From: a virus
Lineage: Duplodnaviria; Heunggongvirae; Uroviricota; Caudoviricetes
Virus record (IMG/VR): IMGVR_UViG_2537562020_000011
Location: 1-23,053 of that record
DNA length: 23,053 bases
Strand: one strand, 5' to 3'
Shown: positions 3,001 through 6,000 of the stretch, piece by piece
Layout of the letters: each line of letters begins with the position of its first letter
How positions within the stretch are numbered: position 1 is the stretch's first letter
Program-made: the position numbers

Positions 3001-6000
3001 TGCGCATTGATGCCGAGATACGCTTCCAGTCTTCGCGGTCGTTGTCGATAACTTCATTTTTTGCCCAGCGATGGATGCTGCCGTCAATGTTTCCGGCATC
3101 CACATCACCAGGCCAGAGAGCGTAGGCCAGTTCATCATCCAGTGTTTTCCATGTCTGCTTGTATTCGCGATGAATGGCAGCAATGACCGGGTTGATTTTT
3201 CCTGTTGAATTTTCAGTGTCTGTTGATTGGCTCTGGCGCGGGCGAGATCAACAACAGACGTGTATTTTCCGGTTTCCTTGCGTTCACCTTCGCGACGTTT
3301 TTTCCAGATGCGCATCTCTGCCTGAATTTCGGGCCATTTGGCACCAGGCTTACATTTATGCTTAACCCACCCGATGGCATGCAGCTTAAGCTCCGGATAC
3401 ATGGCGTTAACTTCTGGCATTTTCATCAACGCTTCAACGATATGTCCGTCGAATGTTGCCATGTCTTCCTGCAACAATTCCTGCGCGCTAATCACCATAT
3501 CAACGGTGATGTTTTCACATGTGTCGAACTTAACCATGACAGCGTTCTGTACTTCAGGGGCCAGCTTGTCAAAAGTGACGTTCATCGGATCTGATTCAGT
3601 CTCAACCGGGACAAAGGAAGCAGACTCCTCATCCCAGCGGTTTTCCTGCATATATTCAGCATCCCAGGAATCGAGGGCAGGGCGGGGTATACCGGGTTTA
3701 TCCTCGCAAACAAGAAATTTATAAGCGCAGTCCTGAGCAGCCGGATAATGTTCCAGGAATTGCCAGTGAAATTTTGCGCGGGCGCGACGTTCATCACCAG
3801 CTTCAATGGCAGTGGCTACAGCGACTGCACCTTCTTCCTTTATTGCCTGTTCGTCCGGAATGGCGGCGCAAATAAAGACTTTACTCATTTTGTTTTAACC
3901 TCATTACAGATTTAAGGATGAACAAATCCCTGCCATTGCTGGCATATAAAAATGAAACCGGATATTAATTACGGTGCTGTTTTAAGTCCTGCCGGGATTT
4001 CGTTATTATCCTGGTGAATAACTTTATCGACCGGATAACAGTTACCGGGAATTTTCTGTTCCACTGCGGCAACCATGCATTCTTTCATTGAGCCGTATAC
4101 GCCAGTAACCATGTCAACCGGTTCACCGGAAACAAGAAAAACCGTCAGAACAAGTGCAAATGTTGTATTCATTGCCAGCATCCTTTTTGCATCAGGCGTA
4201 AACGGGCCAGCATTGAAACAATGCATATTTTATCCAATAGCTCCCGTTCTTGTTTCCTCTTGTTAATGGCATCTTCAGTAAATACTGGGTTACTGATAGT
4301 GACACCAATTTCAAAACAACCTTCAGACGTATTAACGTTTGGTAATAACGTTTTCATTATCGCACCCTCAACAATGAATTTTGTGATGCGGTGCCTGGTG
4401 CCTCCAGGTGACGTTAACCAGTTAACAATTAACGCCGGATACAGAACCCCACCCATAACTTGGTTTTAACTGTTCCGCGTGCGCTTAGCCGCATTCACCG
4501 CATCACAAAATTCACTTTAAAAAGGACGGCAGAGCAGTCACGGAGTAAAACTGATACCGCCAAACGCCACCAGAAAATTGATAACAGAGGGCGTTGCAGC
4601 GGGGTTGTCACTTAAGCGCATGGTCAACCTGACAACCCGGTGTCTCAATGGGGGAGGAATAACCCCGCCATACTTACCGCCGCGCCATTTCGCGGAGTGC
4701 CACAACCGGAAGCGCACGGTCGACGAAAATTTAACGACAGGCTATCTATGAACCAACTACCTCGCCGTGCGCTTTCGCGTTATGCCCTGACTTTTCAGGA
4801 AAATGCCCTTTCAGTAAACTGTCAGTGCCGGATGCTCACCCGTGTCCGGCGCACGCACTCCACCTCACCCGTGGAGAACCCCTTAATTACCAACCCTCAG
4901 GAGGGTGAAATGACTAGTAAAAATGTAAATATCCAGTTTAACCACGATGTTTCTCCTGCTGGACTTGCGGATGATCTCACCGCTATAAAAACGGCAATTA
5001 TGCTACTTGCTGCTAAGTTGCCTGCGTCATCAAAGCCAGCGGAAATTTGTGACTCATTGCGTAAGATGAATTCAACAAAATGCAATGAGATGGCATCACT
5101 TATTGAAAGTGCAATTGATTTTAATGATTAATCGAAATTTCATGGCTAACTGTAACCCTCCCATCTGTGGCGGGATGGTTTAAATCGCTGGGATTAATGC
5201 CGCACTCAGTAAAATGGTTCTTAAGGGGTTCTATCCGAATCCCTTTCTTTTTCATTAACAAGCCAAACCCCTTATCAATGATATCCATTAATTCCAGGAA
5301 GTATTTTTCATGTAAATCCTGGCTATCAGAGAGCCGCTTCTCTTCGTACAGACCGATAAAGGCACGACGCACGTTACCGGATATAGTATCGATGGTTTCT
5401 TTTTCTACGGTACTCAGGTCAAGAGTCGCCAGTTGGAAACGAACTATATTCGCTGCCATTTCCTGGAATTGCATTGGTAAATCTTTAAATTCCATTATTA
5501 GCCTCGTTGGTTAGCTATTAACGTGGGTATGTAATCATTCTGGCAATGCTTAATGCCGCTGCTTTTTCCAGCCTGGTGATATCCTGCTCCAGAGCGGACA
5601 GATTTTCAGCCTGCTTAGCCCTGGCTTCATTGGCCCATTTCAGATCCTGCGCTGCATTAATTTTCTGGCGCATCCACTCATAAAGTTCATCATCGGTATA
5701 GTCTGGCGCGATGATGACGGGTTCTCGTTTCTGCATACTGATTCCTCGCGGTGCTGTTTCCCCTTAACGCCGGGGTGGCGGAACAAAAACCTGCTGCATA
5801 GTTATTAAAGTTGAACCCTGCCGTCATGTTCTTACGCCTCGGGCTGGCTACTTACCCCCTGACCACTGCCTGGTAACTCGAAGTATTGCCCTGCATTCTG
5901 TGGGGCGGGGTGGGTTGGTATGTTGTTAAGGTAACAAGTGTTACCTTTCGAGTCAATGCAATGTTGCAAAAAGTACATTTGAGGGCGTGAAAAACCCGCA

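Follow-up and report, generated by a model that had tools for sequence, protein, structure and literature searches.

What does a small gene do when it points against the early operon of its own prophage, behind a leader that folds into hairpins? This question is raised by a 23,053-nt stretch of DNA, here called the window (positions 1 to 23,053 of the IMG/VR virus record IMGVR_UViG_2537562020_000011, Caudoviricetes), in which an open reading frame (ORF) of 73 amino acids (aa) lies on the plus strand with minus-strand genes on both sides: dicB on one, and a 124-aa gene and ydfC on the other (Table 1). A preliminary description of the locus, made without database searches, had reported this reversed ORF and its strong ribosome binding site (RBS), and both were found again, the Shine-Dalgarno (SD) sequence AGGAGG standing 5 nt ahead of the ATG. 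Our analysis indicates that the ORF probably belongs to a moron-like plus-strand cassette with a probable promoter of its own, a 5'-terminal hairpin and an SD-masking leader, which lies opposite the dicBF unit known from the cryptic prophage Qin. The leader is conserved, its three-helix structure is accompanied by covariation, it is linked to varied ORFs, and it is reversed in every context seen. A leader module of this kind, serving many small ORFs that are unrelated to one another, seems not to have been described.

When viral contigs were scanned with a pattern for hairpin 1, 120 stretches were returned, among which two classes could be recognised. In the first, the hairpins run directly into ydfC; in the second, ...GAGAACTCCTTAATTACCAACCCTCAGGAGGGTGAAATG comes after the hairpins and leads to a small ORF (63-96 aa), of which there are at least seven; an all-against-all BLAST linked only close variants among them. 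A further scan brought five more diverged leaders, each with yet another ORF. In E. coli and Salmonella prophages, the same leader stands ahead of 12 or more small ORFs that have no relation to one another; its conservation extends exactly to their ATG, and every leader ORF seen is reverse-oriented within an early operon under repressor control. The class-two ORFs are convergent with a minus-strand gene, which they overlap by 11-122 nt and which mostly has a conserved N-terminus (MEFKDLP...GLYEEK) and a cassette-specific C-terminus. Hairpins with an ORF also occur without dicF, for example in early-left regions of Shiga toxin (Stx)-type phages and at loci beside other partner genes. On the reverse strand of one locus (L230), leader copies stand at 1104 and 1775, 670 nt apart, with different plus-strand ORFs behind each, which suggests that the cassettes can stand in tandem arrays. 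One of the L230 ORFs encodes 155 aa with a long hydrophobic stretch and is possibly a membrane protein.

The sequence that travels with the ORF comprises only the last ~85-100 nt before the ATG (4811-4912, plus strand). The leader of ~400 nt that had been proposed therefore shrinks to ~85 nt: homology between contexts begins at hairpin 1, and 4480-4810 is part of the minus-strand untranslated region of dicBF, which is present in K-12 Qin with no plus-strand ORF. At diverged loci encoding homologues of the 73-aa protein, the sequence upstream of hairpin 1 is dissimilar to that of the window. The ~400 nt indeed contain no convincing ORF, but they are not a featureless leader either, as they are antisense to DicF and its precursor; for ~300 of these bases, the opposite strand corresponds to a processed RNA that is already known. 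Hairpin 2 (CTCCAC-N7-GTGGAG) was located at 4858-4876, where it had been placed, whereas hairpin 1, correct in sequence, lies at 4827-4850, 8 nt to the right of 4819-4842; its 6-bp core GCCGGA-N12-TCCGGC is the outer part of a 9-pair stem. The motif CTCACCCGTG, which the preliminary description noted in both hairpins, is present exactly twice, at 4835-4844 and 4864-4873, as a direct repeat with 29 bp spacing. This duplication is within chance, since with one mismatch allowed at least two matches occurred in 38/100 window shuffles; further repeats of 8-9 nt lie within the same 546 nt. As a key feature the motif fails, because the hairpin 2 loops of diverged copies differ (CUGACCC, ACCGACC, CUCGUCC, CUUGACC and CUUCAUCU were seen in other copies).

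The structure of the leader was assessed on an alignment (A7) of 19 leaders from different contexts. A model with three helices, namely hairpin 1, hairpin 2 and a helix formed by an anti-SD stretch and the RBS, left 90.1% of the alignment cells paired, as compared with 36-50% in slid controls. Six pairs carry compensatory changes (27 cells), and the covariation score was reached by none of 500 shuffles. RNAalifold, applied unaided to the 19 leaders, recovered hairpin 1, hairpin 2 and the anti-SD/SD helix. The proposed search for covariation in related prophages thus bears out the suggestion of a regulatory RNA structure tied to the small gene, in the form of a structured plus-strand leader. 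In hairpin 1 the pairs from 17-40 to 25-32 (A7 numbering) are retained in 15-19 of the 19 leaders and the sequence is nearly invariant, while the two pairs beyond 4827/4850 are often broken. In hairpin 2, pair 50-66 is U-A in 11 leaders and C-G in 7, and pair 52-64 is C-G in 10, A-U in 4 and G-C in 3; the stem CUCCAC/GUGGAG is found elsewhere as CCCAAC/GUUGGG or CCCGAC/GUCGGG. The third helix behaves likewise: pair 74-98 is U-A in 10 leaders and A-U in 9, pair 75-97 is U-A, C-G or U-G, and CUCCUU/AAGGAG is replaced by CUCCAU/AUGGAG or CUCCAC/GUGGAG, an anti-SD CUCCNN facing an RBS NNGGAG. The helix also forms in single-sequence folds of diverged leaders, and at two loci (Salmonella L213, and L215), which were reached through the protein alone, the leader has the same architecture between hairpin 1 and the ATG. 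That the hairpins are real is shown by conservation and covariation among related loci, and the third helix makes sense only in plus-strand RNA, because one of its arms is the SD of the plus-strand ORF. The preliminary description was therefore largely right in what it observed and half right in how it interpreted it: the defining features of the leader are the two hairpins and the anti-SD helix.

In the window the anti-SD reads CCCCUU, in place of the CUCCUU, CUCCAU or CUCCAC of other copies. The minimum-energy fold of the window pairs the SD with 4887-4895 rather than with the anti-SD, so that the SD is paired either way. In comparison with shuffles, the fold energy of the plus strand is low (z = -4.1) and that of the minus strand is not (z = +0.24). 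Neither hairpin is followed by a U tract on either strand. Searches with Rfam 15 gave no overlapping covariance-model match for window positions 4811-4912 at E up to 10, and no leader match for the diverged leaders L213, L215, L228 and L230 at E up to 1. We also considered a kissing interaction of the loops with the RBS, as both UCACCC loops are exactly complementary in the window to GGGUGA between the SD and the ATG. The pair UUACCC/GGGUAA in L215 looks compensatory for it; this pairing is lost in the hairpin 2 loops and in the Salmonella leader, and the candidate was dropped.

A candidate -10 box lies immediately upstream of hairpin 1 (Table 1), and hexamers of TAnnnT type are present at the same offset in several otherwise unrelated contexts (TAAGCT, TAAATT, TGaTAAAAT and TGcTATAGA), with A at position 2 and T at position 6 in most independent contexts. 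Transcription starting at about G4827 would explain why the two pairs beyond 4827/4850 are so frequently broken. The sole terminator-like site on the plus strand (5223-5245) falls within the 124-aa gene and is no more than chance would yield.

Several observations weigh against the plus-strand leader. Hairpin 1 shows no covariation, and the search patterns themselves account for part of its invariance; most loci were retrieved by a pattern that includes its 3' arm. A G to A change in hairpin 1 of Salmonella preserves pairing on the minus strand only, as G.U, and Watson-Crick covariation alone cannot distinguish the strands. The energy advantage of the plus strand is true of E. coli-type leaders and not of diverged ones, and the compensatory changes stem from few lineages, ~6-7 events. 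The anti-SD helix of the window has an internal mismatch (C4880/A4902). Upstream of hairpin 1, a consensus promoter scan at a 9-of-12 threshold detected nothing, and the -10 box is poor in Salmonella L213, L221 and L230b. Moreover, both hairpins are retained with neither SD nor ORF in the majority of E. coli prophages, K-12 Qin among them, and the hairpins might serve a purpose by themselves.

This persistence in K-12 Qin and most sampled prophages, like the Salmonella G.U pair, would suit an alternative in which the hairpins act in the leftward early transcript, in the interval from ydfC or the 124-aa gene to DicF, as a 3' stabiliser of the upstream mRNA once RNase III has cut, a processing signal or a put/nut-like antiterminator, the ORFs being merely inserted alongside. 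The RNase III stem in the DicF precursor lies ~50 nt downstream of the hairpins, which agrees with such a role, as does the loss of the ydfA transcript in an rnc mutant, which is unexplained (PMC10448788). We consider it unlikely, however, since the third covarying helix involves the SD of the plus-strand ORF and makes sense in plus-strand RNA only, and since the leader is conserved right to the ATG of unrelated ORFs. Furthermore, the minus-strand fold of the window does not surpass that of shuffles, three invariant G.U pairs of hairpin 1 turn into A.C on the minus strand (68% paired versus 93%), the hairpins lack a U tract, and copies that lack the ORF stop at a deletion junction and have the appearance of remnants. 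As judged by fold energy (z = +0.24 for the minus strand) and by the covarying third helix, the structured sense transcript by which HK022 put and lambda nut sites are known was not seen. Other attempts to assign the strand had less to offer. Folding energy gives a clear answer only for E. coli-type leaders and was kept as supporting evidence only. G.U-compatible substitutions in 33 close variants, which contain no compensatory change, favoured the plus strand in ~6 types and the minus strand in 2, which is not significant. Mini-ORF and SD-like signals in the minus-strand hairpin copy are not conserved by P13374-type copies and were dropped.

The covariation bears equally on the idea that the sequence acts at the DNA level only, be it as a REP (repetitive extragenic palindromic)-like palindrome, as an anchor at a module boundary for homologous recombination between mosaic phages or as direct repeats bound by a protein. 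The element is located exactly where homology between phages begins or ends, and the 10-mer is directly repeated at 29 bp spacing. A likeness to E. coli REP sequences seems to extend over the first ~10 nt of hairpin 1 only, where its outer stem (TGCCGGATGC...) resembles the start of a REP. Yet the compensatory changes in hairpin 2 and in the anti-SD helix keep pairing and not sequence, and ACCCGTG is not enriched in the window (4 copies versus 2.25 expected). No evidence was found for the pair of protein-binding sites that had been suggested, and the direct-repeat motif is lost in diverged copies. A role as a recombination anchor is compatible with the leader function and is no substitute for it. 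An element acting purely as DNA is, in our view, very unlikely.

The small gene preceded by the plus-strand leader is coding. It is under purifying selection (ratio of nonsynonymous to synonymous polymorphism, pN/pS, 0.19; 6 alleles), and the reading frame is maintained in homologues at 73% (Salmonella) and 65% identity. The family is small, as a profile search of 1.8 billion representatives found only about ten small clusters (at 50% identity). Its PHROG family, 7249, and that of the 124-aa protein, 6937, are both families of unknown function; sequence searches of Pfam, NCBIfam, PADLOC and PDB with both proteins gave no match. Their AlphaFold models are helical and of low confidence (predicted local distance difference test scores, pLDDT, of 64 and 60), and fold searches with these models gave no match at E < 0.5. 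The 73-aa protein has no transmembrane-like hydrophobic stretch, charged residues being distributed along all helices as read from the sequence. The N-terminal ~55 aa of the 124-aa protein are conserved, and its C-terminus differs by cassette.

In the Salmonella element, too, the gene for the 73-aa homologue is reversed, within an early operon led by Cox. This element (L213, Salmonella Muenchen) lies beside pheA, its early operon being led by a Cox-like gene, and its minus strand contains a C4 antisense RNA (71.8 bits) and an isrK-like RNA (1900-1987 and 2101-2167) ~1 kb from the 73-aa homologue. At another locus (L233, 1340-1500, plus strand), a distant 71-aa homologue, from one of the small clusters above, has the Q antiterminator gene on one side and the holin gene on the other and is reversed relative to them. 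The GC-rich hairpin upstream of it (GCCGGG...CCCGGC) is a different one, with TAAAAT directly before it, and the leader covariance model gives no match at this hairpin.

The convergence of the two genes and the overlap of their 3' ends invite a third alternative, namely a toxin-antitoxin or toxin-immunity pair, in which the small ORF would be a type I-like toxin, silenced by SD masking and by the antisense early transcript, or would neutralise the 124-aa protein, the latter by analogy to pore-forming colicin operons, where the immunity gene is reverse-oriented. Changes of the small ORF go together with changes in the C-terminus of the 124-aa protein, the SD is masked, and the prophage also has hok/sok. 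Physical overlap alone can explain the co-variation of both genes, however, and the leader ORFs are mutually unrelated. A strict toxin-antidote relation of the 73-aa and 124-aa proteins is unlikely because 21 of 80 loci keep an intact 124-aa gene although the small ORF is missing and because the same small-ORF family stands beside different partners. The absence of a transmembrane-like stretch and of matches in PADLOC, Pfam and NCBIfam likewise argues against the pair, and a hok/sok-like type I system is not supported by the charged helices of the 73-aa protein or by Rfam, which detected no sok-like RNA in 4300-5200. Taken as a whole, a toxin-based pair seems to us quite improbable. The hok/sok-type locus of the same prophage lies elsewhere on the plus strand, with an Rfam sok match at 11430-11605 (121.6 bits) overlapped by a Hok-sized ORF (11543-11755).

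The moron-like nature of the cassette emerges from the comparison with relatives. Window positions 4380-4895 are 94% identical to the ydfC-dicB region of K-12, where the dicBF genes of Qin are arranged as ydfABC-dicF-dicB. In the K-12 Qin spacer both hairpins are present, homology ends at ~4895, the ydfC stop codon follows within ~20 nt, and there is neither an SD nor a plus-strand ORF in the hairpin region. The cassette itself (4896-5497, ~600 bp from the SD to the start of the 124-aa gene) is extra relative to K-12 Qin and most prophages. Like morons, it separates two genes that are direct neighbours in related phages and has a lower GC content (38-42% in the extra DNA versus 48-56% in the flanks). 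Genes that are antisense to lytic genes and transcribed independently are typical accessory loci of prophages (PMC7067206). A BLAST search with the segment from hairpin 2 to the ATG identified a full leader copy in ~825 of 5,426 complete E. coli genomes, O157:H7 with a 77-aa ORF among them. The covariance model, built from the 19 leaders, scores the window at 109 bits and the truncated K-12 copy at 69 bits. Among the 80 related loci found through the 124-aa protein, 21 (L161 and 20 similar ones) have an intact 124-aa gene but have lost the 73-aa ORF by deletion, together with the 3' arm of hairpin 2. In these copies the stop codon of the 124-aa gene adjoins the remnant, and hairpin 1 has three extra substitutions (GGATTCTTATCCGTG), which fits decay after loss of the ORF.

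Table 1. Features of the cassette and of the opposing dicBF unit, with positions in the window.
Feature	Position	Strand	Basis or remark
Gene of the 73-aa protein (PHROG 7249), predicted helical	4910..5131	+	RefSeq WP_001394124.1; PHROG 7249, E 8e-46
Candidate -10 box TAAACT, 6 nt 5' of hairpin 1, start at ~G4827	4815..4820	+	predicted
Leader hairpin 1, GCCGGAUGC-UCACCC-GUGUCCGGC	4827..4850	+	9 pairs including U.G and G.U
Leader hairpin 2, CUCCAC-CUCACCC-GUGGAG	4858..4876	+	stem covaries, loop variable
Anti-SD 4879-4884 (CCCCUU) paired with RBS CAGGAG 4898-4903 (SD AGGAGG 4899-4904)	4879..4904	+	
124-aa gene (PHROG 6937), convergent, 11-nt overlap with the 73-aa gene	5121..5495	-	
ydfC, upstream gene of the operon	5518..5736	-	RefSeq annotation; directly adjoins the leader remnant in K-12 Qin
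DicF-precursor stem (4707-4719 / 4765-4777)	4707..4777	-	inverted repeat, 13 nt, 92% complementary
DicF small RNA gene, terminator stem, then U run	4524..4575	-	Rfam RF00039, 70.8 bits
19-bp perfect inverted repeat (4375-4393 / 4496-4514) around the dicF-dicB spacer	4375..4514	-	100% complementary
dicB, cell-division inhibitor, downstream gene of the operon	4169..4357	-	Pfam DicB PF05358, E 2e-38; RefSeq WP_001397095.1

The minus-strand unit is the classical, already known dicBF operon of prophage Qin, with DicF and its RNase III stems. The window DNA is a 100% match to a prophage at ompW of E. coli O6:H16 strain 2014EL-1346-6, and its minus strand carries a lambdoid early-left operon composed of a LexA-type repressor gene, ydfC, the 124-aa gene, a long untranslated region and dicB, followed beyond dicB by a DUF1482 gene and then by exonuclease, excisionase and integrase genes. 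Like Qin, this prophage has DicF, its terminator, both RNase III stems and dicB; unlike Qin, it has the 600-bp insertion with the 73-aa and 124-aa genes, and a LexA-type repressor in place of DicA. Positions 4380-4810 are the minus-strand untranslated region of this operon. DicF itself lies in the untranslated region between ydfC and dicB, genes of the same strand, and its match spans the full Rfam model (1-52), well above the gathering score of 48.

In K-12, DicF is cut from a polycistronic transcript by RNase III, which makes the 5' end of a 190-nt species, and by RNase E, which gives the 53-nt form; the RNase III dependence of this processing has been demonstrated (PMC10448788). A 72-nt form also arises by RNase III processing at the 3' side (PMC5069750). 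In the window, 190 nt upstream of the DicF 3' end falls at ~4713, and RNase III probably creates the 5' end of the 190-nt species at the stem 4707-4719 / 4765-4777, one arm of which includes this position. The repeat 4375-4393 / 4496-4514 is probably the stem that gives the 3' end of the 72-nt form, because a 72-nt DicF would end at ~4504, within one arm. Rfam STnc100 matches 4341-4526 with 38 bits, under the threshold of 47 bits. The DicF spacer was found by BLAST in 4,729 of the 5,426 complete genomes, and a scan of contigs with a DicF pattern gave 7 loci, only of Escherichia/Shigella type, and did not increase the diversity. A published 3'-end data set lists a Rho-dependent 3' end within ydfC of K-12, so dicBF transcription may often end short of the leader remnant and of DicF. 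Further along the window, tRNA genes are present on the plus strand at 16695-16770 and 16868-16944, for tRNA-Met (CAT, possibly Ile2) and tRNA-Arg (TCT).

Among known systems, the arrangement of the cassette is closest to that of lambda sieB, a rightward gene within the leftward early operon (pL) that is convergent with, and adjoins, the preceding gene (lambda N). In contrast to sieB, the ORFs described here are much smaller (62-96 aa), and many unrelated ones stand under one leader. The 73-aa protein gave no SieB match in Pfam, NCBIfam, PADLOC or PHROG, and the region upstream of sieB was rejected as a homologue of the leader, the covariance model giving no match in lambda at E up to 10. That region (lambda 34380-34490; L232 1880-1990) has a duplicated 10-mer of its own, ACCCCTACAG, partly in hairpin contexts, and also a ATTACAACCCC stretch like that of the leader.

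Leaders that sequester the SD are known from RNA thermometers and from the fold-back inhibition of hok and IS10 mRNAs, and the ompA leader is an example of a stabilising stem-loop at the 5' terminus. The cassette leader resembles the former in that an upstream complementary stretch pairs with the RBS, and the latter in that a stem-loop lies at the predicted 5' end of the mRNA, but it is common to unrelated genes and not bound to one gene family. T4-type phages have PeSL (promoter-early stem-loop) cassettes, in which such sequences flank shuffled small ORFs in a hyperplastic region. There, too, a short conserved promoter/stem-loop sequence is combined with interchangeable small ORFs of unknown function. 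The phages and the sequence are different, however, and the stem-loop of PeSL is a terminator, whereas the structure described here would be the leader of a translated gene with SD masking, in cassettes antisense to the host operon.

These comparisons lead us to propose the following course of events for the plus-strand cassette. A compact cassette would have been inserted between ydfC and the untranslated region of dicBF. A weak promoter with the -10 box TAAACT would direct plus-strand transcription from about G4827, so that the mRNA would open with hairpin 1. Stem-loops at the 5' terminus slow 5'-end-dependent decay, and hairpin 1 may guard the mRNA in this way. Hairpin 2 would come next, and then the anti-SD, whose pairing with the RBS would keep translation of the 73-aa protein low or conditional. 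In temperate enterobacterial phages the leader would thus serve as a portable expression module for unrelated small ORFs. By a logic like that of lambda sieB, the lysogen could express the small gene as long as the early operon is kept silent; after induction, convergent early transcription and pairing of sense and antisense RNAs would switch the small gene off. An effect of the plus-strand leader on the leftward transcript, as had been surmised, is possible, because both transcripts would be fully complementary. We extend this only tentatively to a broader possibility, which we hold with clearly less confidence than the cassette itself: that the early operons of E. coli and Salmonella temperate phages contain a hypervariable antisense slot, marked by this portable and so far undescribed riboregulatory leader, for small proteins made during lysogeny (with functions such as superinfection exclusion, defence or anti-defence), and that convergent transcription from the slot, with RNA pairing, would damp leaky expression of the toxic DicF/DicB module until induction.

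DicF and DicB are among the best-studied regulators of E. coli prophages, and the sequence 5' of the DicF precursor has been treated as a plain untranslated region. A portion of this sequence represents the leader of a gene cassette on the opposite strand, or is derived from such a leader, and ~15% of complete E. coli genomes still have the cassette, with one of many alternative small ORFs. Since one leader serves unrelated genes, its covariance model offers a handle for finding accessory genes of this kind, and the leader is a defined RNA structure that can be mutated to test their expression. If they are made in lysogens, the small proteins are candidates for new exclusion or host-modulating factors, and the sense/antisense layout could influence how tightly the toxic dicBF operon is silenced.

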